Notes under the pieces: generated by a model
Told to the model about the DNA's origin: nothing
The model's input: only the letters and a program-made list of their open reading frames with translations
The model's database searches: none
Translations under genes and position numbers: made by a program
NCBI GenBank assembly: GCA_000004695.1
Contig: CM000151.3
Location: forward strand, 6,400,001 to 6,464,000
DNA from: Dictyostelium discoideum
Lineage: Eukaryota
Length of the DNA: 64,000 nucleotides
Direction: 5' to 3'
Shown: positions 35,703-59,982 of the stretch, in pieces
How the letters are laid out: the number at the start of each line of letters is the position of its first letter
How positions within the stretch are numbered: position 1 is the first letter of the stretch

Positions 35703-38700
35703 CTATTGAGATAAATTTGAAGATTCTCTATTTAAACAACTTTTTGCAACAGAATCAAATAATTGAGCAATTTCTGGAGCAACTTTTGTGAAACCATGAG
35801 ACCAAAAGTTATATCTTAAATTTTTAATTAATTCGATAAAAGTGATTAATAGACCCCATGGATGTGGTTTATTACTAATTAATCTTTCCAAGAGTACTCT
35901 GGTGATTTGTTCTTTGATAATATCTTGACCAGATTCAGAGAAGAGGAATAAAATTACACAACTTAAGTAATGGGTATGATTATTTGGATAACGAAGTTGA
36001 TTGGCGATTGCATTGAAAAAGATATAACGACCTTCACTATCGAGATCCAAAGCCAAACGATGGAAAATATCCATTGGAGCACTTTGTGATGGTGTTGGAG
36101 CAACACCAGATTTACGTTGAATTTGTGGAATTGCCAATGTTCCAATGTATAAAACGAGTGAATTAATGAGTGGTACATTGTATTTGGTGCCAGCAGCCAA
36201 GATTTCCTCTTTATCGGTGAGTAGTAAATGTTTATTCTTTAAATCCAACAAGAAAGAATATGGACCTCTATTCTTGAAGTAATTATCAATTTCAATTTTT
36301 AAACCTTTAAGACTTGCGGTAAAGTTTGAAGAGATTTTTGGTGGTTGATTAATATCTGGTAACATATCAATCTTTAAGTTTGGAGTGAAAGGATCTGGTA
36401 ATCTCATATTTCTTGGAAAGGCGGATAAGATGAGATTACGAAGTTGAATACAAGTATTTGGAATGACATCACATAAACTGAAATGATATTCACAGAGGAA
36501 CTCTGGGAAGTCATGAAGGAGTAAAAGGAGGACCTTCAAAGTACCCTTGTAGAGAACACGTACAGGTTCACTTAAGTCACCACCACGAAGGAAAGGTTCC
36601 AAGAATTTAAAGTGTTGAACCAATAGAGCATGGAACCATTGTTTTTGTTGTCTAATTAAAAGTTTTGGCATAAAGGATTTGTGAGAGAGAAGATCTAACC
36701 ATGCAAAACAGAAACCTGGATACTTTTGTGGTTGAAGTGTTGCCAAAGCATTGACAAAACAAAAGAGAATATGATTTGAGACATGTTCAAGTATTGGATC
36801 TGGTGAGGTTAAATCGACCAAAAGATTTTCAAATATTCTAAGGTAAGGACGTTGATTGAAACGTGATGGATTATTTTCATAGTCTTTGGTGAGGATTTTA
36901 ATTAGGACACTTAAGACTTTGGTTAACATATTGAGTTTGGTTGGATCGGCATGTTTGACCATCATTACAACGAATCTACACCAAGAGTCAATCTCAAGGT
37001 ATTGTGGTGATTGAATTTCAACATTTGCAGCATAACGTTCCAATGCATACTCTAAACCCAATCTAAAGAATTTAATAAAGTAAAGTTCATTCTTCATAAA
37101 ACTAATTTGTAATACTTGACCAAGATATTGAATGAGTATCTTTTGATCGGTATTGGTTGATGAGAAAAGTAACCAATCTTGAAGAAGAGCAATGACAGCC
37201 TCTCTAAGACCTGGTGGATCAACAATCATATCCTCTTGACGAATACGAGAGATACGACGTTTCTTTTCTTCTTTTGGTGAGTTTTTAATTTCTTCAAGAG
37301 TTTTGGCCAACATTTCCGATGGTGAACGACTACTAATCTTTTGAAGGAGATCAAAAGTTGATGGAAACTCTGAAAGATTTGCATAGTTATTTTCAACAAG
37401 ACAGAATCTTAATAGACTAATTGCAAAATCAATGGGTGGAGCCGAACGTGAATCTATCATCATCTTTGAGAGTGCCAAATCATATTCGTTTATATTAATC
37501 AATTGATGAATGATTAAACCTGCTACCAATACACGATTTAATTTCTTATCAGGTGTACTAAATAAAAGGAATGATGTAATGGTGGTAATAACCTTTTGAT
37601 CCCAATCACGTAAAACTTCTAAAAGTTCAAAATAAATTTCATAAATTGGTTTCTTTTCTTGTTCACATAATCTATTACATAATCTTTGTGCAAAACCTGC
37701 TAATAATTCTGATTGACTTTGTGACATACGAACTAATGTAAGAATTTGTTGACTAATTGTATATAAAAGTTCTAATTCAATATTTTGAGTTTGAGCTAAA
37801 ACTCTAATTACAACTTTATCAACTTCATTTAATAATAATCCAAATTTCTCTAAAAGATCTGAATTTGGTAAATTTTGTTGTTGTTGTTGTTGTTGTTGTT
37901 GAACTTGTTGTTGTTGTTGTTGAACTTGCTGTTGTTGTTGTTGTTGTTGTTGATGCTGTTGTTGAGCAGCTTGAAGAGCAGCTTGTTGAGCTTGTTGTTG
38001 TAATAATTGCATTTGAATTTGTTGCTGTTGTTGTTGTTGTAAAATTTGTTGAGAAACTTGTTGTTGCATTTGTTGTTGAACCAATTGTTGTGACATAACA
38101 CCAGTTGATTTAATAGCACCACTAACAATATCATTAGTTGGAGAAGCAGTTAAATTATCAGTTTCACCAGCACCACCAACATTTGAAATATTTATATGAT
38201 GTGGAAGATTAGTGAAATCTTCATAGACACGAAATTGATCTGGTTGAATACCACCTGGTTTTGGACGTAATGATTCTGGGAGAGTATTATAGATTGTAGT
38301 GGTGAGATAACCCATATCAAAGAATGGTTGTGAACCCATTTGTTCTCTATGTTTAAGACGATCATTGTAACTACTAGCCAATACTTCATCGATGGAAATG
38401 ATTGCTTTTTCAGTGGCAGCGGTTTCAACGATGGAACAAGCAAAATCTAAATTTTCATTACAAACCAAACTAATTGCATGCTCTAATGGTATCTCACAAG
38501 GTGGAAGACCATTATTATTTTGAAGAAGAGTTCTAAGGTAAGCAATGATTGAAACACGAAGTGGATCTTTACAAGTGACCAAAGCAAGACTACCAGCAAG
38601 ATTTTGAACCATTAAATGAGAGGCTCTCTTCATTTTTTGTTCATCAGCTTCGGTGGCAAAATCTTTACTAACCAATTCTTTAGAGGTAATTACAGCGATG

Positions 38701-39662
38701 GCAACTGATCTTTCAACTACTGGAGCGATGATTTCACGAACTGCCTTATCGAATGCCAAAGGTACAGCTTTCTTAAAGATTGGTGATTGAGCATAGGCAC
38801 CAATGGAAGGAGTGTAAACAAGATAACGTGGAAGATTTGAAAGTAAATCGATTGATGATTGTTTATTATCTTTTCTCATGTTTTCTTCTTGTTGTTCAAT
38901 TTCACGTTGTTGACGACGATCGGCTAGAATGGTTGTTGGTTTAACAGTATTAATATCAACGGATAAATTATTACAAAGTAATTCCACTTCGAATTTGATA
39001 TTATTTTTGGATTCTTTCAATTGATAAATTTCAACCATTAAACGTAATATTGCCATCACCCAAGGATTTGGTGGTCTGAATACTTTTGATTGTTGACAAT
39101 GTTCCAATAGTTTTGCAACAAATGGAACGATTGCAATTAATAAACCATTCTCTGCTGCATAAATTAAAAGATCCTTTGGTGAAATGACCTTTTGTAACAA
39201 TGGTTTATTACGAGCCAAAGTATTTAAACCTAACCAACCACCCAAATTCTTTAGGAGTGAACGTTCACTATGATCAACACGAATCTTTTCTGATTTTAAA
39301 AGGGTATGAACATTTTGATGAGAATGGAAAAGTACACGCTCTGAAATCGTTGGAATACAAAGACGGTCAATAAATGCAAGATAAAGTGCATGGAAATTTG
39401 CTTCAATTGAAACTCTCTTTACAACAAGATATTGAGCAAAGTAATCATAGTATTCTGGTTTCAAAATATCTTTAAGATCTTTTGCTTTAACATCTAAATT
39501 ATTTTGTGAAATATTATTAATAATAAAGTAAATCTTATCTTTGGTAATATCATCTGGTTGAATCATTTCTTTCGATGCATTTAAAAGTGTACCAATTGGT
39601 ATGGTTGTACTAAATGCATCTTCTTGATCTTTTTTTCTTTTATCATCATCTTTACCATTTGG

Positions 39663-39704
<42 letters not shown>

Positions 39705-40556
39705 ATGATGTTGTTGTTGTTGTTGATGGTGATGATGTTGTTGATGATGTTGTTGTTGTTGTTGCTGTTGTAATTGTTGATGTTGATGATGTTGTTGTTG
39801 TAATTGTATTTGTTGTTGTAATTGTAATTGTTGAGCCATTTTATGTTGTAGTAATTGTTGTTGTTGTAACATTTGTTGTTGTTGTAATAATTGTTGTTGT
39901 TGTTGTGGAGTTAATTGATGATATTGATCGGCTGAAATATCATTACCACCACCACCAACATTACCACTTGAAGTATTTGAATCATAGGTGAAATTCTCTG
40001 CATCTTGGATTTGTTGAGATGATAGGATTGTAGTAGCAGGTGGAGAATTTGCAGATTTTTGTTGTTGAGGTTGTTGTTGTGGTTGTTGTTGTTGTTGTTG
40101 TTGTTGTGGTTGTTGTTGTTGTTGAAATTCCATACCATTTTTTATTGGATCGCTTGATTCAATGATTTTATTAACTGATAAAATTATATCGCCATAATTA
40201 TCTCTAAAATGATCTATTGAACAAATTTGAGCCCAATATTGTGGCCATTCAACCAATCTATTTGCAAATGAGATTAATGAATTTACACCAAAAATAAACA
40301 TATTACTATTCAATGGGAATCTCATTGCCTCCAATACATATTTTAATGCAACTCTTAATGGTTGTGAGGAAATCAATTGATTCTTTATCAATGATCCAAA
40401 TAATAAACCTGTAATTTTCAATTCTTTATCTGGATAATCACTAAGGAATTTATATTCATCAAATAAATTAAATAATAAACATTTGAATATATCTTGATCC
40501 CTATTTTTTTTTTAAAAAAAAAAAAAAAAATAAAAATGATATTAGTAAAATTAATT

Positions 40557-45627: not shown

Positions 45628-46224
45628 TTAGTTTTTTAAAATGAAACCATTTTTTGGAGACTTTGAAATGAACCTATAAATTTGTTCCAATGATAAATGT
45701 TTAATATTTGAAGTATTTCCATTCAATATAAATACAAAGCCACCTGGTTCCAATTTTAGTAAACCTGGGTGCGAATATCCATTACCATTATAATATACTA
45801 TAGTATTGGTTTTAACTAGTCTCATTACTTCATTTCTAAAATTATTATTATTTCTATTTCTAAAATTATTATTATTATTATTATTATTTGGATTATTATT
45901 TGGATTATTATTTGGATTATTTGGATTATAATGGGTTAAATCTTTCATTTTTATTGAGGAACTATCTTTGATTTTATTTTTATTTTTATTCTTTTTATTT
46001 TTAATTTCTTTTTTAAAACAAAAGCAACCACAACAAAATATTAACTTTAGAATATTTCTAATGATTGGAAATTTAAAACATAAGACAATCACTATTACTA
46101 TAACTATAAGAGCTGTCAATAATAATGTAAATTTAGTTGCACAAATTTTTAGTTGTGTATAATAACAAACAACATTTAATCTATAATTATAAAAATAAGT
46201 AAAGGTTAGATAATTAGTTTTTAG

Positions 46225-46313
<89 letters not shown>

Positions 46314-47748
46314 GTTATTATTATTATTATTATTATTTTTAATTACATACAAATTTGGACAAACATCATCACAAGTAAATTCAGAACCAATATTTAAAGA
46401 ATCACCATCTAAAGAGTTATCACCAGATTGAGCACCATTATCAATTTCAGTATCAGAAGTATTAAAATTAATTCTTATACTATCGATAACTTGAGCCACT
46501 TCATTATATAAATCACCAAAACAATGATATGATGAATCTAATTTTGAAGTAGTATAAACTTGAAATACAAAACTATAAATTTCCTTTGATTTAATGGTTA
46601 CTTGTTGATTATTGATAGGATTAATATCACCAGTACAATTAATGATTGTCATTGTATAGTCTGCATTGATTGTACCAGTATTTTGGACGTTTACTCTTAG
46701 TACACCATTTTTTGACATTGATTCAAATCTATCGATTTGGTAATTTATAATTTTACCAGGTGAAATATTAACAATATATTGAAGTGAATCGGCTTTCAAT
46801 GTAATGGTTAACATTGTTCTATGGGATTCATCAAATCTAATTTTCAAAGATCTTGAATCTTGATTACCTGCAATCTGAACCTTTGTACCCAATTGAGAGG
46901 CTATATAATTTCCCTTCTTACCACTGGAAATCAATGCAACATCGGCATTATAATAATCTGCAATTTGATTTTGAAGACAAGAACCAAATAAAGCGGCACA
47001 ACTATTGGGTTGATTTTGAAAAGCACTATAGGAAACACCGATTTTATTACAAGTTAAACCTGATAAATCAAAGAAATTCTGATCCAACACCATACAAGTG
47101 TTTATAGAATTTGGTTGATTGTAGGGAAATACCACTTTCTTATCAGTGAATTGATTGATTTGAGTCGATGATTGAAAATCACCAATAATTCTAACAATTG
47201 CTTGACTAAATGTATCCATACCCATTGGAGCTGAATTTGATAGTATAATATCTTGAGTGATTGGATTTTGATTATAACTATAGGTTAATGTCGCTGTTAT
47301 TGTATATTCAACTTGAGTTTTTGCAACATTATAAACATCATATTTCACCGAACTAAATGATAAACAATGTGCTGATGATGATTTGGACCCTAATAATGAA
47401 CAACCTAAATTTGCTCTTGAATTTTGATCGGCACCAACATAATCTGAAAAAGAACAACTACAACAAAATCCTTGACTGTCTCTAATTAATTTACCATTGG
47501 CATCTATTGCACCTGGACATGTATGATCAGTTGGTTTATCTTTACAACCACTAGTTAAAACATAATCAGTTTTATAAATAACAGTTTCTTTTGGTTGATA
47601 AGCTACATTTTGTACATAAACTAATGGATAATTTATAAATGTTTCTGATTTTTTAAATTTTACTGAAATTGGTATAACTAATGTTTTTAATTTACCATTT
47701 TCATCTTTAATTTCACTAACTTGAAAATTAAATGTTTCTGAATTTTCC

Positions 47749-48690: not shown

Positions 48691-50078
48691 ATGACATTAG
48701 ACCCATATTCAGGATCAGTCGATTGCCGTGACTGGAAGAAATCAGCAATTAAAAAAGCTATTGAAGATGGTATATTTAAAGAACATGACTATGTAATGCT
48801 TTATAATCTTGACGAATTCAGAGCACTTGCCAAAGAAGCCTGCGACAACTTAAAAGGATTACAAACTATGGCAGTTAAATGTAATCCAGTTATGAGCTTA
48901 ATGAAAGAAGCAATTAAAGCTGGTCTTGGTGCTGAAGTTGCTTCATTTGGTGAATTAAGAATTGCAGAAATAGCTGGTTTTGAACCATCTGTAAGTATTC
49001 CAAAAATTTTTAATTCTTTTAAAATAAAAAAAAAATAAAAAAATAAAAAAATAAATCCTAATTTTTTTTTTTAATGAAAAAGAAAATTATATTTGATTCA
49101 CCAATTAAAACAAAAAAAGAATTAGAATATGCATTAAATTTAGGTGTTGTAATTAATATTGATAATTTTGAAGAATTAGAAACTATAGAATCAATTGTTT
49201 CAAAATTTTCAAAGGAAAAATATGAAAGTCTTTCGTTGGGTATTAGAGTGAATCCACAAGTTGGAGCAGGTAAATTAACTGATCTTAGTACAGGTGTACC
49301 AACATCTAAATTTGGTATTGGTATTGAACATAAAGATAAGATCATCGATGCCTATGTACGTAACAAATTTTTAAAGGGAGTTCATATTCATGTTGGATCA
49401 CAAGGTTTTGAAATTTCAAATATATCAGAATCTGCAGTTAAAGTTATGAATTTAGTGAAAGAGATTAATGCACGTGATGATACAAAATCTCAAATTACAT
49501 TCTTTAATATGGGTGGTGGTTTATCAGTAAACTTTGAATCAGAAGAGACTTCACCAACTTTCACTCAATATGCCAATCACATGAAACAATTATTACCAGA
49601 ATTATTCAATGGTGAATTTTTATTGATTACCGAATTTGGTCGTTCCTATTGGGCAAAATGTGGTGTCGTAGTTTCAACAGTTGAATATACAAAATCAAGT
49701 GGTGATCGTGAAATCGCAATTTGTCATGCCGGTGCAAATATGTACATTAGAACCGTTTATCAATTCCCATTGTGGAGAATTAGAGTAACCATTTTCGATT
49801 CAAATGGTGAATATAAAACTGGAAATGAAAAAATCACAGATATCGCTGGTCCTTGTTGTTTTGCCGCTGATGTTTTAGTAAAAGAAAGATTATTACCACC
49901 AATTAAAAAAGATGATTTCATTATGGCACATGATAGTGGTGCTTATATGCTTTCAAGTTATTCTCATTATAATTTAAGATTAGCTCCACCAATTTTCTCT
50001 TTTAATACCACAAATAATACAATTGAATTAATTAAAAAAGGTGAAACTATTGAAGATAAAATTAATTTCTTTTCTTAA
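48691..50078 (+). CDS. Fold-type III PLP-dependent decarboxylase of the Orn/DAP/Arg decarboxylase family, most like diaminopimelate decarboxylase (LysA). 2 exons: join(48691..48990, 49083..50078), about 431 aa.
   Basis: Donor TCT|GTAAGT (48991) and acceptor tttaatgaaaaAG (49081-49082), phase 0. LysA-like motifs present: IRVNPQVGAG, HIHVGSQ, GGGLSV, EFGRSY (EPGR), GPCCFAADV (GPLCESGDV), HDSGAY, SSYSHYN. Confidence 0.8.
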
Positions 50079-50282: not shown

Positions 50283-52161
50283 TTAAAAAAGATCAGAAAT
50301 TAAATCTTTTGACGATGGTTTACAATTTTCAGGAATATCAAATGAAGCAATGATTTGTTTTGAAACTTTGGTAACTTCAAAACAAAGATCTTGAATTAAG
50401 AATGGGATTGATTGAGCAACATTTGGTGAGATTAAGTGATTTGAAACGAACCAACCTAAATCTTCTTCAATGGAGACAAGAGCGTCCAACATAATTAAAT
50501 GAGCTAATGGTTTAACGTTTTTAAGTTTTAATGTATTGATAGAGTTTTGGAAAACGATTTTAGTCATGTGAGCAAAACCTAATTTGACAGCCCATGGAAT
50601 TGCATTGTTAAAAGCGAAATAAGCAGGTTCTTTAGAGTTGCTAATGATTTGTTTTAATTCGGCCAAACGAATCTCTTCTCTAGTTTCAAATAATTGATTA
50701 ATATTTGAAAAATTGAATAATAACGATTTGGCATCTTCACCATCTAAATAGATACGATTGGTAGTGGTATTTGTTTGTTTTTGTTTTACACCTAATAAAT
50801 ACTTGGCCAATTGTTGCATGAGAACAGTATTATCACCTTCATATGTACAAACGATATCACAATCATTTTTAAATTCAGCTATACGATTTGCTGAACGGTA
50901 ACCTTGACCACCACAAGCTTCACGACAAGTTTGGAGTGCTGCAACACAGAACCAACTGTAAACTGCTTTGATACCTGAGCAATGGGCATGGATTGAAGCT
51001 GGTAATTTCTCTTGACATAATTCATTGGTTAAACGTTGAATGTAAAGATCAAACAAGATGGTTCTTGCCAATGGTGCCATAAGACGACGTTGTTGTGAAC
51101 TGAGAGTAATCAATGGAAGCTCATTATTTGCAGATGGACCAAACTGTTTTCTAATATGTGAGAATTCAATAGCAATAGAGAGGGAGGTTTTGGCAGCACC
51201 TGAACAACCTTTAGTGATTGCCATTCTACCAACAATGAATGGTGCCATTGTTGCAGCGAAATTCTTTATTGGTGTATTGAATTGACTCTTGTAAACACCG
51301 TCTTCGCTAACATCACTATATTTGTTTAAAAGGTTCTCTCTTGGGATACGAACTTGATCGAAACGAATTTGACCATTATCAATACCATTCAAACCTAACT
51401 TATGACCACAATCTTTAATGGTGATACCTTTCATGATTGCACCACTCTTTGGACAACGAAGTGGTACAACCAATGCATGAACACCATAATTTGTACCATC
51501 AATGATTAAGTTTGCGAAAACAGTAGTGTAGGTAGCATGAAGATAAGAACCACCAATCCAAAACTTTTCACTTGTTGGTGTTGGTGAATGAATGATAAAC
51601 TCTTTAGTTTGTTTATCGTAATGTGCAGTAGTTTCAATACCACGAACATTTGAACCATGACCAATCTCTGTCATTGCAAAGCAACCCATTGTCTTGAGGG
51701 TATTAGCATCTTCAATATATTTCTCATGTCTTGAGGTACCTAAAAACATGATTGTACCTCCAAATAATGTATAATGAACACCCAATTTGGTACAAACATT
51801 GTTATTATACAATGAAAACATTTCTACAACACCAGCATATCTGTGAAGGTTATTCTTAATATCAGTCAAATGAATTAATCCACTATTTGCAACAGCAACA
51901 CATTGTTCAAGTACTAATTGTCTATAGGTAGCCATATCCAATCCAATGAAATTCTCTTTGAATTTTGGATGATTTCTAATGAATTCTCTTGCTGCATCCT
52001 TATATTTACTTGCTTCAACTGAATCAATTAATAATTTTAATTCTCCAACATTTATATTTGCATCAATTGAATTAAATAATTCTTTTTCTAATACTTCATT
52101 TTTATTATTTGTTGTTTGACTATTAACATCTAAATGTTTTTTAATCTATATTATATATATG

Positions 52162-54071: not shown

Positions 54072-55950
54072 TTAAAAAAGATCAGAAATTAAATCCTTTG
54101 ATGATGGTTTACAATTTTCAGGAATATCAAATGAAGCGATAATTTGTTTTGAAACTTTAGTAACTTCAAAACAAAGATCTTGAATTAAGAATGGGATTGA
54201 TTGAGCAACATTTGGTGAGATTAAATGATTTGAAACGAACCAACCTAAATCTTCTTCAATGGAGACGAGAGCATCCAACATAATTAAATGAGTTAATGGT
54301 TTAACGTTTTTAAGTTTTAATGTATTGATAGAGTTTTGGAAAACGATTTTAGTCATGTGAGCAAAACCTAATTTGACAGCCCATGGAATTGCATTGTTAA
54401 AAGCGAAATAAGCAGATTCTTTAGAGTTGTCAATGATTTGTTTTAATTCGGCCAAACGCATCTCTTCTCTAGTTTCAAATAATTGATTTATATTCGAAAA
54501 ATTGAAAAATAACGATTTGGCATCTTCACCATCTAAATAGATACGATTGGTAGTGGTATTTGTTTGTTTTTGTTTTACACCTAATAAATACTTGGCCAAT
54601 TGTTGCATGAGAACAGTGTTATCACCTTCATATGTGCAAATGATATCACAATCATTTTTAAATTCAGCTATACGATTTGCTGAACGGTAACCCTGGCCAC
54701 CACAAGCTTCACGACAAGTTTGGAGTGCTGCAACACAGAACCAACTGTAAACTGCTTTGATACCAGAGCAGTGAGCATGGATTGAAGCTGGTAATTTCTC
54801 TTGACATAATTCATTGGTTAAACGTTGAATGTAAAGATCAAACAAGATGGTTCTTGCCAATGGTGCCATAAGACGACGTTGTTGAGAACTGAGAGTAATC
54901 AATGGAAGCTCTTTATTTGAAGATGGGCCAAATTGTTTTCTAATATGTGAGAATTCAATAGCAATAGAGAGGGAGGTTTTAGCAGCACCTGAACAACCTT
55001 TAGTGATTGCCATTCTACCAACGATGAATGGTGACATTGTTGCAGCGAAATTCTTTATTGGTGTATTGAATTGGCTCTTGTAAACACCATCTTCGCTAAC
55101 ATCACTATATTTGTTTAAAAGGTTCTCTCTTGGGATACGAACTTGATCGAAACGAATTTGACCATTATCAATACCATTCAAACCTAACTTATGACCACAA
55201 TCTTTAATGGTGATACCTTTCATGATTGCACCACTCTTTGGACAACGAAGTGGTACAATAAATGCATGAATACCATAGTTTGTACCATCAATGATTAAGT
55301 TTGCGAAAACTACAGCATAGGTAGCATGAAGATAAGCGCAACCAATCCAAAACTTTTCACTTGTTGGTGTTGGTGAATGAATGATAAACTCTTTAGTTTG
55401 TTTATCGTAATGTGCAGTAGTTTCAATACCACGAACATTTGAACCATGACCAATCTCTGTCATTGCAAAGCAACCCATTGTCTTGAGGGTATTAGCATCT
55501 TCAATATATTTCTCATGTCTTGAGGTACCTAAAAATATAATTGGACCTCCAAATAATGTATATTGAACACTCAATTTCGTTAAAATATTATTATTATACA
55601 ATGCAAACATTTCTAAAGCGCCTATATATCTGTGAAGGTTATTCTTAATATCAGTAAAATGAATTAATCCACGATTTGCAATTGCAGCACATTGCTCAAG
55701 TACTAATTGTCTATAGGTAGCCATATCCAATCCAATGAAATTCTCTTTGAATTTTGGATGATTTCTAATGAATTCTCTTGTTTCATCCTTATATTTACTT
55801 TCTTCAACTGAATCAATTAATAATTTTAATTCTCCAACATTAATATTTGTATCAATTGAATTAAATAATTCTTTTTCTAAAACTTCATCCTTATTATTTG
55901 TTGTTTGACTATTATTAACTTCTAAATGTTTTTTTATCTATATTATATAA

Positions 55951-56943: not shown

Positions 56944-57319
56944 TTATTTATTTAATTTTTTTAAATTTATTGGTAAAATTTTAGAAAATATAGAAATTGT
57001 TGGTTTACTTTTTGAATTTATTCTTGAATTTACATTTTTCAAATAGTTTAAAAGATGATGTTCATCATATTTAATAATTCTTTTTCTTGGGGAAAGATCA
57101 ATTGTTGATAAATATTTTGCCAATGGTTTTGGATGATATTCAACTAAATGTTCTAAAATATGACTATGTCCTCTTGAATAAGATATTGAAATATGTTCTT
57201 TAGTTAATGGTAATGATAATGGTGATACAAATATCATTGACGATAATCCATTAATTGATAAATGAATCGGACTTGATGGTGATGATGAAATTTGTTGTTG
57301 ATTTTTTGTTGGTGATAAA

Positions 57320-57357
<38 letters not shown>

Positions 57358-59818
57358 TGTTGGTGATGATGAAATTGAATTTATTGGTAAAATTGGTAAA
57401 TTTACTGTTGGTATTGATGATGATTGGATTGGTGAAGAGGAAGAAGAAGGAGATGAAGAAGATGAAGAAGATGATGAAGATGAAGATAAAGAAATTGATG
57501 AAGTTGATAGTGAATTTGAAGGTATCATTATTGGTGAAACCTTATTACTCATTGATGGTGAAGAAATACTATTGATATTGTTATTATTGTTATTATTATT
57601 ATTATTAATTGATAAAGTATGATAAATTGGTGGTGGAGATGATGAATTTGGAGTACGTGGTGTAGTTGAACCACTTGGTTGTAAACAATATTTTATAATA
57701 TCTAAATAACCATAATTGAAAGCAGGTTTTAAAATATGAGAAAAATCTAAATTAACAGATACAGTTCTTGATACAACATCTTTAAAATATTTTAAAGTTG
57801 TAAGATCACCAGCTTCACCAATTGCAATCATTGTTGCTTCTGTGATTTGTACATCTCTTGGACAATATTGTTCGATAATATATTTAACAGTATCAAAACA
57901 AGTACCAGAGATAGCATTGATTAAAGCTTGTTCAGTACACCCTTCAGTCCTATTCTTTTGAAGGAACTGAATGACATCTAAATTACCATTGGAAGCAGCA
58001 TTGTTAATGGCCGCTTTACTACAAGGTTGGCCAGAATTATGTAAAAACTTGACCATCTCTAAATCACCCAAATAAGCTGCATTGCTAACGGCCCTACTTG
58101 TAGCTCCTTCAGTACGATGATTCAATAGATAACGTACCACCTCTTCATGACCATTATAAACTGCTTTATCAACAGCATCGGTTGTACAATGTGCAGATGT
58201 TCTATTCTCTGTTAAATATTTAACAATTGATAAATGACCATTTATAGCTGCCTTATCAATTGCATTACCGATGGATAACGTTTGGTCCAATTCATTTAAA
58301 TATTGAACGATTTCAAAGAAACCACTTGCAGATGAAATTTCCATACCACTACAATAGGATTGAGGTTGTAGATAAAAAGGTTCACCACCAAATATAACCA
58401 AAGCTTTAATTGCTGCTAAATTATTATATATACAACAATCTGAGAGTAAATTTGGGTTGAAACCACCATCTGGTATTGGTTTCTCTTGAAGTAGATAAGC
58501 CAATAGATCAGGTCTATCAACGAATCTAACAGCAATATCGAATGCTTTAGCAGTGATTTCAATTCCCAATCTATTACGACAAACTTTAATCAATTCTAAA
58601 TTCTTATATAATAGAGCAGATGCAATGAAATCCTCATTAAAGTTTACTCTAAAGAAACCTTCGAAATCAATATTACCAGCATGAGACATATAAAATTCTA
58701 AAATTTCCAATTGACCTTTACTAATTGACAATGTGAAAACTTCAATATTATTTGGTTGATATAATGTATACAAATATTTTACAATCTCAATATGACCACC
58801 TTCAATTGCTCTTTTTGTAGCACTATACAATGGTGATTCAATATGTGAATCTGGTGCCAATACAACAGTACTTGATGATCTACCACCTCTTGGACTATAG
58901 GGTATATTAATTAATGGTGTTGTATTGGTTGGTGGTATAATATTATTTTGAATTAAATATTTTAAACAATCTAAATGACCATATTGTGCTGCTAAATCTA
59001 ATGCTTTTGACCTTTTTGGTGTTGATGGTGGTGTTGATGAATTTATAATTGGTGATGATCCATTACTATTATTATTACTATTATTATTACTACCACTATT
59101 GTTACCACTATTATTATTATTATTATTACCACTATTATTATTGATATTATTATTATTATTATTAAATCCACTGCCACCCAGTATATTACCATTATTACCT
59201 AAATTTTTATGAAGATATTGTAAAATTTCTAAACTACCATTTGAAGAAGCATGATCAATTGCAAATAAAGTACATGGTTCATTCAATTGTTGATGAATAT
59301 ATTTAACCAATTCTAAATCATTGAATGCAACAGCATTTTCCATTGCACTATCAGTGCAACCATCATTTCTATTCTCTTTTAAGAATTTCACCATTTGTAA
59401 ATTACCCCAACGTGATGCATTATCGATAGCATAGGGTGATGCAGTGTAACCTTTGTTATGTAAATAAACCACCATTTCATAATTACCATAATATGCAGCA
59501 TGATCAATTAATGTTGGATATAATCTTGGAAAATATTCAATATATCTTTCAAAACACATTTTAAAAATATTGAAATCTGGTATTGAAAATATGATTTTTC
59601 TACAAACTGATGATATTATCAAATTATGACCTTGTTGAATCTTATCTTTAATTAATCCCCAATGTTTATGATTTATCATCCATTCTAATGATATTATATC
59701 TTTATATTTTCTACTTATAACTTTACTTCCAAATCTTTTAACACCTTTAAATATTTTACTTCTAATTTTAAAATTTGATAAAATTTTTGAAAATAAAATT
59801 GAATTTTTATCATCATTT

Positions 59819-59856
<38 letters not shown>

Positions 59857-59982
59857 ATTATTATACATTTCCAACTCTTCATTTTTAATTTCTGATTGAA
59901 TTGTTGGTGATTTTAATGTTAAGATTGATCTTGATGTTGGTGAACATTCTGTAACTATTATTGATGTTGTAGTTAATGACAT
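56944..59982 (-). CDS. Protein with about 20 divergent ankyrin-like repeats (consensus ..A.d.Aa.nGhLe.vkyLhen.t.gCt..a....), N/S-rich linkers, 1012 aa, single exon.
   Basis: Continuous ORF with ATG at 59982. Repeated ~33-aa units such as AIDNASRWGNLQMVKFLKENRNDGCTDSAMENAVAFNDLELVKYIHQQ and AIDKAAINGHLSIVKYLTENRTSAHCTTDAVDKAVYNGHEEVVRYLLNHRTEG. Confidence 0.7.

Follow-up and report, generated by a model that had tools for sequence, protein, structure and literature searches.

Within a 64,000-nucleotide stretch of Dictyostelium discoideum DNA (CM000151.3, positions 6,400,001 to 6,464,000; hereafter the window) lies a gene whose product resembles LysA, the bacterial diaminopimelate (DAP) decarboxylase (DAPDC), in an amoebozoan lineage where lysine synthesis through diaminopimelate is not expected. 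This raises the questions of what the enzyme decarboxylates and of how the gene came to be in this genome. The gene has two exons separated by a spliceosomal intron (Table 1), as the original prediction had proposed, and the spliced 431-residue product is identical to XP_643322.1 (EAL69333.1, UniProt Q75JL7) of D. discoideum AX4, for which the database annotation is "group IV decarboxylase [Dictyostelium discoideum AX4]". Literature searches for Q75JL7 or for a "group IV decarboxylase" of Dictyostelium yielded no relevant paper. The splice junction, at which GFEPS is followed by KIIFDSP, reads through continuously in all dictyostelid orthologues. The coding sequence has a GC content of 31%, versus 22% for the window, and its composition is host-like. 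Contamination was rejected, as the gene sits between host genes on a D. discoideum chromosome and its intron is of the host type, and a pseudogene reading was rejected on the basis of an intact frame and a conserved sequence.

Table 1. Features of the decarboxylase gene, in positions of the window, with residues numbered on the spliced product.
Feature	Positions	Strand	Remarks
Exon 1, codons 1-100	48691..48990	+	ATG at 48691; carries PLP-binding Lys63 in AVKCNP
PLP-binding Lys63	48877-48879	+	aligned to E. coli LysA K54; K in 197/197 ungapped family rows
Spliceosomal intron, 92 nt, phase 0	48991..49082	+	GTAAGT...AAAAAG; ~10% GC; in-frame stops
Exon 2, codons 101-431 and TAA	49083..50078	+	stop codon at 50076-50078
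HIHVGSQ, H201-Q207	49383..49403	+	His203 and Ser206 = E. coli H191 and S194; invariant in family
GGGLSV, residues 244-249		+	motif present in spliced product
EFGR, E284-R287	49632..49643	+	Arg287 = E. coli R271, T. maritima R249
Arg323, specificity helix	49749..49751	+	= E. coli R307, T. maritima R285, M. jannaschii R343
Substrate loop GPCCFAAD, G356-D363	49848..49871	+	Phe360 replaces LysA Glu after catalytic Cys359
HDSGAY, H383-Y388	49929..49946	+	Tyr388 aligned to E. coli GAY Tyr378

The product is a fold-III (alanine-racemase-fold) PLP-dependent alpha-decarboxylase, predicted to be catalytically intact. It matches Pfam domains PF02784 (E=2e-39) and PF00278 (E=9e-12), H. pylori DAPDC matches it at E=1e-44, and its AF2 model (pLDDT 93) has DAPDCs as top PDB matches with TM scores of 0.8-0.88. 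Both sequence and structure place LysA/DAPDC as its closest characterised relatives, in agreement with the original prediction, and all five motifs named there (HIHVGSQ, GGGLSV, EFGR, GPCCFAAD and HDSGAY) are present. Residues K63, H203, S206, E284, C359, D363 and Y388 are conserved across the clade alignment. By comparison with T. maritima DAPDC, His203 is predicted to stack on the PLP and Ser206 to bind its phosphate, which is also contacted by the counterpart of Tyr388 (PMC8277567). Dictyostelid orthologues are 62-78% identical to the window protein.

Despite this likeness, the protein falls outside LysA proper. Its score against the lysA equivalog TIGR01048 is 247.9 bits, below the cut-off of 297.9, and in an NJ tree with the LysA sequences of E. 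coli, H. pylori and Aquifex as the three outgroups, 208 family representatives split from these with a bootstrap of 100. In the same tree the dictyostelids form a group (bootstrap 100) nested in a hydrophobic-loop ("CF-loop") clade, and the eukaryotic clade is sister to a bacterial one. The protein does not nest within eukaryotic ODC/ADC, as ODC chains score 38-41 bits against it compared to 156 for DAPDC, and the residue after its catalytic Cys is Phe rather than the Asp of the ODC/ADC type. Scores were also below the NCBIfam cut-offs for nspC (29.2 versus 409), DokD (NF052544; 101 versus 700) and SpeA (45 versus 624), and a Pfam search of the window protein gave no match to Pyridoxal_deC (group II decarboxylase); membership in ODC/ADC, NspC or DokD was rejected on profile scores. 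As judged from sequence, the clade is a large, uncharacterised sister of true LysA, and the window gene probably does not encode an enzyme of lysine biosynthesis. Some members of the family are long, with fusion partners of the VitK2_biosynth/MqnA, isochorismatase, EF-hand and MFS types, while others have extended N-terminal regions without a Pfam match; these partners are too mixed for inference.

The substrate pocket shows where the clade departs from LysA. The pocket of T. maritima DAPDC holds the distal carboxylate of the substrate through R249 and R285 and the distal amine through E315 (PMC8277567). The counterparts of both arginines are retained in the window protein, and in the family alignment the Arg287 column holds R in 184 of 208 rows and K in 10, with R at Arg323 in 206. 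The glutamate, however, is gone, as position 360 is F in 175 of the 208 aligned representatives, I in 14, L in 13, H in 4 and never E, and the loop GPxC[F/I/L/H]xxD is found in 369 of 377 relatives with Glu in none. The expectation that this loop implies a specificity other than that of LysA was thus supported, but the Cys-Cys pair on which it had drawn is a poor guide: its first Cys varies within the clade (L in 120, C in 77, A in 9), and the key change is from Glu to Phe after the catalytic Cys. Further marks of the CF-loop clade are F285 (175/208), H315 (198/208) and E82 (206/208), all present in the window protein, which reads TEFGR and has His at the position of LysA Asp299 (H315) and Glu at that of LysA Asp73 (E82). 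In T. maritima, substitutions of E315 remove most DAP activity and turn amino acids lacking the amine into substrates (PMC8277567). FigC has Met at the position of the LysA distal-amine Glu because the amine of its substrate is acylated. As both distal-carboxylate arginines are kept while Glu is replaced by Phe, the predicted substrate is an acidic amino acid whose distal end bears no free amine.

Glutamate is the favoured acid of this kind because of the gene neighbourhoods of bacterial members, which were surveyed in 80 loci (ORFs in high-GC Streptomyces were called with a GC3 filter). In 9 of 10 marine gammaproteobacterial loci, the next gene downstream, in the same orientation, encodes the Na+/glutamate symporter GltS, and one alphaproteobacterial locus has a GltS gene near that of the decarboxylase, for 10 loci in total; the proteins linked to GltS carry the loop GPCCFAGD, versus GPCCFAAD in the window protein. 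NAD-glutamate dehydrogenase adjoins the decarboxylase gene in 5 loci and gamma-glutamyltranspeptidase (GGT) in 2, the order being decarboxylase-GGT-GltS in Colwellia (L012). The Pseudoalteromonas denitrificans cluster (L013) contains both succinate-semialdehyde dehydrogenase (SSADH; TIGR01780, 691 > 646) and GABA transaminase (TIGR00700, 568 > 507), and SSADH and an omega-aminotransferase lie near the gene in L016; over the 80 loci, SSADH was found in 3 and a GabT-type aminotransferase in 2. In Streptomyces-type loci, hutU is divergent from the decarboxylase gene in 32 of 59, and the hut-linked loci include hutF in 19, an hutI-like gene in 10 and hutH in 11. Glutamate is the end product of the hut pathway, and this linkage could be inherited synteny. 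A PucR-type regulator is encoded upstream in 12 further loci, and an amino-acid permease downstream in 5, 4 of which are among those 12. None of the 80 loci pairs the decarboxylase gene with dap or lysine genes.

Other contexts were observed as well. Dongia-type loci have a dimethylglycine-dehydrogenase-like gene and a kinase beside the decarboxylase gene, the Pendulispora locus has an ACC deaminase, and in L006 the gene overlaps an operon that encodes a CoA transferase of the succinate/glutarate type together with 3-sulfinopropanoyl-CoA desulfinase (NF042439, 654 > 600). These neighbours do not suggest glutamate, and more than one specificity may exist within the clade. In Kangiellaceae and "Psychrobiaceae" loci there are genes for a TonB receptor, an M14 peptidase and an amidohydrolase of the D-aminoacylase type, some marine loci carry PGA_cap genes, and neighbours of the D-cysteine-desulfhydrase/ACC-deaminase family occur in two loci.

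We infer the substrate from bacterial relatives that are 38-50% identical to the window protein, and the physiological role follows in the same conditional sense. Our tentative preference, held at slightly below an even chance, is that the window gene encodes a cytosolic, dimeric fold-III decarboxylase outside LysA that turns glutamate into GABA. The pocket would hold the distal carboxylate through R287 and R323 and would offer no partner for a distal amine. Glutamate would be converted to GABA and CO2, and the GABA would enter the GABA shunt through GABA transaminase and succinate-semialdehyde dehydrogenase, and possibly GABA signalling. The enantiomer used might be L- or D-glutamate, the latter of which would come from eaten peptidoglycan. 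Feeding on bacteria raises the expression of glutamate and GABA-shunt genes in Dictyostelium (PMC2443395). Against glutamate, its chain is two carbons shorter than that of DAP, and R287 and R323 may not extend to its gamma-carboxylate; an enzyme for L-Glu would duplicate the two GADs that Dictyostelium already possesses; and the Crithidia "DAPDC", alone among clade members in being tied to biochemistry, has an association with the decarboxylation of DAP.

That association underlies the reading of the gene as a genuine meso-DAP decarboxylase for salvage, by which a lysine-auxotrophic, bacterivorous amoeba would make L-lysine from peptidoglycan DAP. The "diaminopimelate decarboxylase" of Crithidia acanthocephali (AGT02684.1, P0300) belongs to the same clade, scores 242 bits against the window protein at 40% identity and groups with Euglenozoa in the NJ tree. 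Cluster membership revealed it among the representatives chosen at 50% identity; no trypanosomatid was among the best 120 matches listed for the Dictyostelium, Capsaspora and Namystynia queries, in which Streptomyces filled the lists. Alves et al. 2013 identified the gene as the sole one of DAPDC type in trypanosomatids and grouped it with Actinobacteria, Dictyostelium, Polysphondylium and Capsaspora (PMC3846528), and its role in DAP decarboxylation has been accepted by later genome papers. In Crithidia fasciculata, DAPDC activity is present in homogenates, and DAP substitutes for lysine in defined medium. In addition, the window protein retains both distal-carboxylate arginines of DAPDC, the T. 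maritima E315F variant keeps ~5% of wild-type DAP activity (PMC8277567), the eukaryotic holders of the gene are mostly bacterivores and Amoebozoa have no lysine pathway. The Crithidia loop, however, is GPCCNSGC, in which Asn takes the place of Phe and Cys that of Asp; it thereby differs from the loop of the window protein and of almost every other member, and the Crithidia activity is therefore not simply transferable to the others; moreover, that activity is known from C. fasciculata homogenates, and its tie to the clade gene is one of association. None of the sequences examined has the distal-amine Glu, on which efficient turnover of DAP depends according to the mutagenesis, and the 80 bacterial loci tie the gene to glutamate and GABA genes instead of dap or lysine genes. 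On this balance, we consider DAP salvage unlikely, though it is the chief rival to the glutamate reading.

A different substrate with a distal acid and no free distal amine would also suit the two retained arginines and the change from Glu to Phe. Candidates include 2-aminoadipate, 2-aminopimelate, cysteine or homocysteine sulfinate (giving hypotaurine or homohypotaurine) and meso-DAP acylated at its L-centre amine, as in murein peptides such as gamma-D-Glu-mDAP. The L006 operon with its desulfinase, the peptidase-amidohydrolase loci of Kangiellaceae and "Psychrobiaceae" and the two loci with D-cysteine-desulfhydrase/ACC-deaminase-family neighbours support such a substrate. These contexts, however, each occur in one to four loci, whereas those of glutamate and GABA are commoner and come from several independent gene families, and GltS, NAD-glutamate dehydrogenase, GGT, Hut, GabT and SSADH have no obvious tie to the other acids. 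We judge this reading, too, to be improbable for the window gene.

A narrower form of the glutamate proposal makes the clade a D-glutamate decarboxylase that would convert D-Glu from peptidoglycan or poly-gamma-glutamate to GABA, in a gene old in eukaryotes and lost in animals, fungi and plants; we hold this as a speculative possibility. The DAPDC lineage works on a D-centre, which fits the idea, as do the marine loci with TonB receptors, M14 peptidases, D-aminoacylase-type amidohydrolases and PGA_cap genes. An enzyme specific for L-Glu, by contrast, would be redundant with the products of gadA and gadB, the two canonical (fold-I) GAD genes of Dictyostelium. GltS transports D-Glu as well as L-Glu. 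We know of no natural D-glutamate decarboxylase, and a literature search for a D-glutamate decarboxylase or a fold-III glutamate decarboxylase found nothing relevant. Were this true, the GABA shunt and GABA signalling of Dictyostelium would both be coupled to its digestion of bacteria.

The original prediction had proposed a lineage-specific horizontal acquisition of LysA by an amoebozoan, followed by re-purposing for a basic substrate (D-ornithine or D-lysine, carboxy(nor)spermidine or a polyamine precursor). The nearest characterised relatives are indeed the bacterial-type DAPDC, DOKDC and BtrK, and since the sister of the eukaryotic clade is bacterial, the gene may plausibly have come from bacteria at some depth. 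A recent transfer, however, does not agree with the distribution of the gene, which spans many eukaryotic supergroups: besides all four groups of dictyostelids, its holders include other Amoebozoa, Capsaspora, ichthyosporeans, a choanoflagellate, diplonemids, kinetoplastids, a malawimonad and a dinoflagellate. The position and phase of the intron are common to Dictyostelium, Cavenderia fasciculata and Capsaspora owczarzaki, and so to members of both Amoebozoa and Holozoa. The altered loop is a signature of the whole clade and is already present in bacterial relatives, so the change in specificity predates any transfer. The proposed basic substrates need an acidic residue for the distal amine, which is lost here, while the carboxylate-binding arginines are present, and the NspC, DokD and SpeA profile scores are far under their cut-offs. 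The residue pattern and the distribution largely refute this scenario, which we regard as very improbable. The gene instead appears to be old in eukaryotes and no recent arrival in Dictyostelium; given its shared intron and broad distribution, it may be an ancient eukaryotic gene that animals, fungi and plants have since lost. Finally, a catalytically dead or regulatory homologue, like antizyme inhibitor among the ODCs, is scarcely credible given that every PLP-binding and catalytic residue is conserved, as is the sequence across dictyostelids, and that the fold is predicted at high confidence.

The distinction from LysA has consequences for annotation. Hundreds of entries in this clade, both bacterial and eukaryotic, are annotated as "diaminopimelate decarboxylase", and metabolic reconstructions infer the last lysine step or DAP salvage from such annotations; based on the residues and gene contexts, the label is probably wrong for most members. 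Were the assignment of glutamate correct, the clade would provide a third, structurally unrelated route to GABA, common among soil and marine bacteria and present in many heterotrophic protists, Dictyostelium would gain a GABA route beyond the two GAD genes in the literature, and the change would be a simple case of specificity switching on the fold-III decarboxylase scaffold.

Among known systems, LysA (EC 4.1.1.20; TIGR01048; PDB 2qgh/3c5q, 1knw, 1twi, 2yxx) is the best match, at 156 bits for a single sequence and 248 bits for the family profile, with the TM scores given above. It has the same two-domain fold-III architecture (TIM barrel and beta-sheet domain), the PLP lysine, the stacking His, the EPGR-type motif, the catalytic Cys loop and both distal-carboxylate arginines. 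Relative to E. coli LysA, the window protein has Phe for Glu343, Phe for Pro269, His for Asp299 and Glu for Asp73, the Tyr of RPxxY is shifted, and the score is below the TIGR01048 cut-off; the clade as a whole differs in its separate position in the tree and the lack of linkage to dap genes in bacterial members. A marine DAP paper seems to concern canonical LysA. DokD, the D-ornithine/D-lysine decarboxylase (PDB 6n2h), is likewise a paralogue of the DAPDC lineage with a changed specificity and a D-centre, but it acts on basic substrates and is more distant from the window protein than the DAPDCs are. The trypanosomatid "DAPDC" (AGT02684.1; PMC3846528) shares the clade, TEFGR and the specificity-helix Arg, and it too is a eukaryotic gene in a lysine auxotroph feeding among bacteria; it differs in its loop, and the literature ties it to DAP-to-lysine salvage, in some species with a DAP epimerase.

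The canonical GADs (fold-I, group II; Dictyostelium GadA/GadB and E. coli GadA/B) share the proposed reaction and the GABA shunt but have an unrelated fold and no sequence homology, and the window enzyme would be analogous rather than homologous to them if the glutamate assignment holds. BtrK, the L-glutamyl-[BtrI ACP] decarboxylase of butirosin biosynthesis (PDB 2j66, 7ru7), reaches 113 bits with the window protein and 183 bits with the family profile and is placed outside the clade because it scores below the DAPDCs. Its substrate is bound to a carrier protein through the gamma-carboxyl group and its gene lies in a biosynthetic cluster, unlike what is proposed here, yet as a DAPDC-derived fold-III enzyme that converts a glutamyl to a GABA moiety by loss of its alpha-carboxylate, BtrK is a precedent for a DAPDC-like enzyme decarboxylating an L-glutamyl moiety.

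Splicing of the window gene yields a 431-amino-acid product found by exact-sequence look-up to be identical to XP_643322.1 / EAL69333.1 / UniProt Q75JL7, annotated as 'group IV decarboxylase [Dictyostelium discoideum AX4]'. This exact match to an AX4 protein indicates that the window is D. discoideum DNA and that our gene model agrees with the annotation. The spliceosomal intron of the original prediction is borne out, as removal of the segment with its in-frame stops reproduces the annotated protein, and every motif quoted in that prediction is present in the translated product. The exon junction (GFEPS/KIIFDSP) is unbroken in the orthologues (62-78% identity to the window protein) from D. 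purpureum, Polysphondylium, Tieghemostelium, Cavenderia, Acytostelium and Heterostelium. Among the neighbors, the Not1 homologue and the ankyrin-repeat protein are ordinary host genes, confirming the chromosomal setting. The HAP2-GCS1 frame is evidently a single exon of a bigger gene, and the two tandem acyl-CoA-oxidase-like frames directly downstream of the decarboxylase gene, 95% identical as proteins, are a recent duplication.

Coordinates of the window gene, its neighbors and features in fetched loci (window positions unless a locus is named)
Feature	Position	Strand	Details
Window gene, ORF with ATG start	48691-50078	+	two exons, break after codon 100; TAA at 50076-50078
Intron of window gene	between codon 100 and 49083	+	92 nt, extremely AT-rich; GTAAGT start, AG end
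CCR4-NOT subunit Not1 homologue	35703-40421	-	1,572-aa ORF
HAP2-GCS1 gamete fusogen family match	46221-47348	-	375-aa ORF; PF10699, E=2e-76, profile positions 156-504
Acyl-CoA-oxidase-like ORF	50283-51941	-	552 aa; ACOX_C_alpha1, Acyl-CoA_dh_M
Acyl-CoA-oxidase-like ORF	54072-55730	-	552 aa; ACOX_C_alpha1, Acyl-CoA_dh_M
Ankyrin-repeat protein	56944-59982	-	1,012 aa
Cavenderia gene	L092 3001-4462		two introns
Capsaspora gene	L093 3001-5117		six introns
Family gene and following spermine/spermidine-synthase-family gene	L091 9597-11231		both on the same strand
Operon with decarboxylase gene	L006 4619-8305		uncultured bacterium; gene overlaps operon end

The window protein has both Pfam Orn/DAP/Arg decarboxylase domains, and its top NCBIfam model is lysA (TIGR01048), where 247.9 bits lies below the cut-off of 297.9; it scores far under the cut-offs of the nspC, speA and DokD models. 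Among solved structures, the best sequence matches are diaminopimelate decarboxylases (DAPDC, or LysA; H. pylori, E=1e-44), followed by BtrK and D-Orn/D-Lys decarboxylase, and a 48-member family profile ranked relatives in the same order as the single-sequence search. ODCs reach only ~40 bits, so the closeness to ODC/ADC named by the original prediction as its counter-case is absent. An AlphaFold2 model (pLDDT 93, pTM 0.91) gives TM scores of 0.8-0.88 to DAPDC structures, its sole soft region being the active-site lid (residues ~160-175). Homologue searches returned many proteins at 35-50% identity, almost always labeled 'diaminopimelate decarboxylase'. Of the 377 sequences collected, 369 carry GPxC[F/I/L/H]xxD and none carries the LysA Glu. 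A phylogenetic check against LysA, using a neighbor-joining (NJ) tree of 208 representatives (397 columns, 100 bootstraps), split the family from its only three outgroups, the E. coli, H. pylori and Aquifex LysA, at bootstrap 100. On these sequence grounds, the window protein is a member of a separate clade and not LysA. Two Polysphondylium violaceum paralogues on separate contigs, which share 67% and 65% identity with the window protein, pair at bootstrap 100 in the NJ tree, indicating a lineage-specific duplication. Several long family members (P0268, P0333, P0282, P0135, P0232, P0302 and similar) are fusions to VitK2_biosynth (MqnA/MqnD-type), isochorismatase, EF-hands or an MFS transporter, the last in a dictyostelid-like gene model (64% identical); others of ~1,000-1,140 aa have an N-terminal 650-750 aa without a Pfam match.

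Members named as eukaryotic by their source records come from all four dictyostelid groups, other amoebozoans (Cavostelium, Soliformovum, Paradermamoeba, Sappinia), Capsaspora, ichthyosporeans (Creolimax, Sphaeroforma, Ichthyophonus, Amoebidium), a choanoflagellate (Mylnosiga), diplonemids (Diplonema, Hemistasia, Namystynia, Artemidia, Flectonema), kinetoplastids (Neobodo, Papus), the malawimonad Gefionella and the dinoflagellate Gymnodinium catenatum. Also eukaryotic are two long metagenomic contigs of the Neobodo group; their PI-PLC, copine, Arf/Ras and Dpy-30 genes lack introns and all run in one direction, an arrangement typical of kinetoplastids. The polyamine-synthase-family neighbor on L091, a kinetoplastid-like environmental contig, is probably not meaningful given polycistronic arrays. 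One clade of the NJ tree takes in every named eukaryote, at a weak bootstrap of 23; its sister is a bacterial clade comprising Streptomyces, Arthrobacter, marine Gammaproteobacteria and Alphaproteobacteria (bootstrap 89).

The Dictyostelium intron matches, in position and phase, intron 2 of Cavenderia fasciculata (GFTPD/KIIYDSP) and intron 2 of Capsaspora (GAPAE/NIVFDSP), lying in all three at phase 0 before [K/N]-I-[I/V]-[F/Y]-D-S-P; were introns placed uniformly, a coincidence of this kind would have a probability of ~1% (2 x 6 / 1377). This shared position and phase places the gene already in the dictyostelid ancestor, and very likely the gene is older than the Amoebozoa-Holozoa split, or it passed from one eukaryote to another. 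It did not enter the Dictyostelium lineage as a recent bacterial import. The horizontal acquisition and re-purposing suggested in the original prediction is, as an event of this lineage, not supported, given the intron common to Capsaspora and an altered loop already present in bacterial relatives.

Column-by-column alignment comparison across 208 family rows showed retention of the PLP lysine K63, His203, Ser206, Glu284, catalytic Cys359, Asp363 and Tyr388. In T. maritima DAPDC, R249 and R285 (E. coli R271 and R307) hold the distal carboxylate of diaminopimelate (DAP), and replacement of E315 abolishes most DAP activity while activity is gained on substrates without the distal amine (PMC8277567). 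Both arginines align with R287 and R323 of the window protein (Arg in 184 and 206 rows, respectively), and the distal-amine Glu (T. maritima E315, E. coli E343) is Phe360, with Phe in 175 rows, Ile in 14, Leu in 13 and His in 4. An enzyme acting on a substrate with an acylated amine has Met at this position (PMC7857480). Further clade-specific changes are D73E, P269F and D299H (E. coli numbering). The first Cys of the Cys-Cys pair, emphasized in the original prediction, carries little weight, as it varies in the family (Leu 120, Cys 77, Ala 9). The window loop, GPCCFAAD, is nearly the same as the GPCCFAGD of bacterial proteins linked to GltS, a Na+/glutamate symporter.

Bacterial gene context was assessed in 80 loci by ORF calling (GC3-filtered where the DNA was GC-rich), neighbor clustering and annotation of recurrent clusters; many loci are mutually related, and counts are not independent events. 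Across phyla, the gene is surrounded by several unrelated families with glutamate or GABA in common. GltS (PF03616, E ~1e-126) lies downstream on the same strand in nine of ten marine gammaproteobacterial loci (Colwellia, Pseudoalteromonas, Thalassotalea, MAGs), 10-120 bp away in eight and beyond a gamma-glutamyltranspeptidase (GGT) gene in L012; because the outer flanks vary, the pair has been kept together through rearrangements. GltS is also near the gene in one alphaproteobacterial locus. NAD-glutamate dehydrogenase (GDH; 1,600 aa) adjoins the gene in five loci (L011, L012, L021, L022, L023) and GGT in two, ordered decarboxylase-GGT-GltS (L012) and GGT-decarboxylase-GDH (L022). The P. denitrificans locus (L013) reads decarboxylase-GltS-LysR-SSADH-GabT, where succinate-semialdehyde dehydrogenase (SSADH) passes TIGR01780 (691; cut-off 646) and GabT passes TIGR00700 (568; cut-off 507), and L016 has SSADH and an omega-aminotransferase beside decarboxylase-GltS. 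In actinobacteria, hutU is divergent from the gene (~120 bp apart) in 32 of 59 loci, with hutF (19), a hutI-like amidohydrolase (10) and hutH (11) nearby; the end product of the hut pathway is glutamate. Twelve other actinobacterial loci have a PucR-type regulator upstream, and an amino-acid permease lies downstream in five, four of them within these twelve. Kangiellaceae and 'Psychrobiaceae' loci contain a TonB receptor, an M14 (AstE-like) peptidase and an Amidohydro_3 enzyme.

Because of the alignment-inferred pocket and these contexts, we propose the reaction glutamate to GABA and CO2; with function carried over 38-50% identity, glutamate is the likeliest of the substrates considered, if not quite a probable one. 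In fold-III enzymes, the substrate amine displaces Lys from the internal aldimine, after which the alpha-carboxylate leaves and the quinonoid takes up a proton. Here, aldimine exchange at K63 would be followed by decarboxylation and by quinonoid protonation aided by the partner subunit's Cys359 loop, while R287 and R323 would grip the side chain via its terminal carboxylate and Phe360 would shut the site where LysA holds the ammonium group. The Hut, GGT and NAD-GDH neighbors speak for L-glutamate; the action of the DAPDC lineage on a D-center, the neighboring peptidase and D-aminoacylase-type genes, the bacterivory of the eukaryotic holders and the two fold-I GADs already owned by Dictyostelium speak for D-glutamate.

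Salvage of DAP to lysine by clade enzymes would fit a lysine-auxotrophic bacterivore, and Alves et al. 2013 place the gene of trypanosomatids alongside those of Actinobacteria, Dictyostelium, Polysphondylium and Capsaspora, noting that C. fasciculata extracts show DAPDC activity and that DAP can replace lysine in defined medium (PMC3846528). Such activity and growth lend indirect experimental support to DAP salvage within the clade, yet the gene is a presumed source of that activity and none of the 80 bacterial loci supports DAP, making this reading unlikely. The sequence used in that study, the Crithidia acanthocephali 'diaminopimelate decarboxylase' AGT02684.1, which matches the window protein at 242 bits and 40% identity, is one of our 50%-identity representatives, but its loop, GPCCNSGC in place of GPCC[F/L/I]xGD, has Asn for Phe and Cys for the terminal Asp, and could be a secondary adaptation. 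The Asp, present in 204 of 208 rows, is otherwise almost never changed to Cys in the family. A relative, P0391, has GPCCIGGC. Other acidic substrates are likewise doubtful; contexts discordant with glutamate comprise Dongia-type loci (dimethylglycine-dehydrogenase-like gene and kinase), Pendulispora (ACC deaminase and 2-oxoacid:ferredoxin oxidoreductase) and L006, whose CoA transferase (succinate/glutarate-type) and 3-sulfinopropanoyl-CoA desulfinase (654, above the equivalog cut-off of 600) hint that some clade members act on a sulfinate analogue of glutamate.

Finally, the gene is known as a sequence feature, being annotated and mentioned in passing in Dictyostelium in 2013; in the searchable literature we found no account that sets this clade apart by its hydrophobic specificity loop, that reports its broad eukaryotic spread with a common intron, or that describes how consistently its bacterial members lie among glutamate/GABA genes. 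Compared with known systems, the window protein is a structural relative of DAPDC, yet three tests of LysA membership each placed it outside. The proposed function is that of a glutamate decarboxylase, yet the protein falls outside the GAD family; BtrK provides the precedent of a DAPDC-type scaffold able to decarboxylate an L-glutamyl group.
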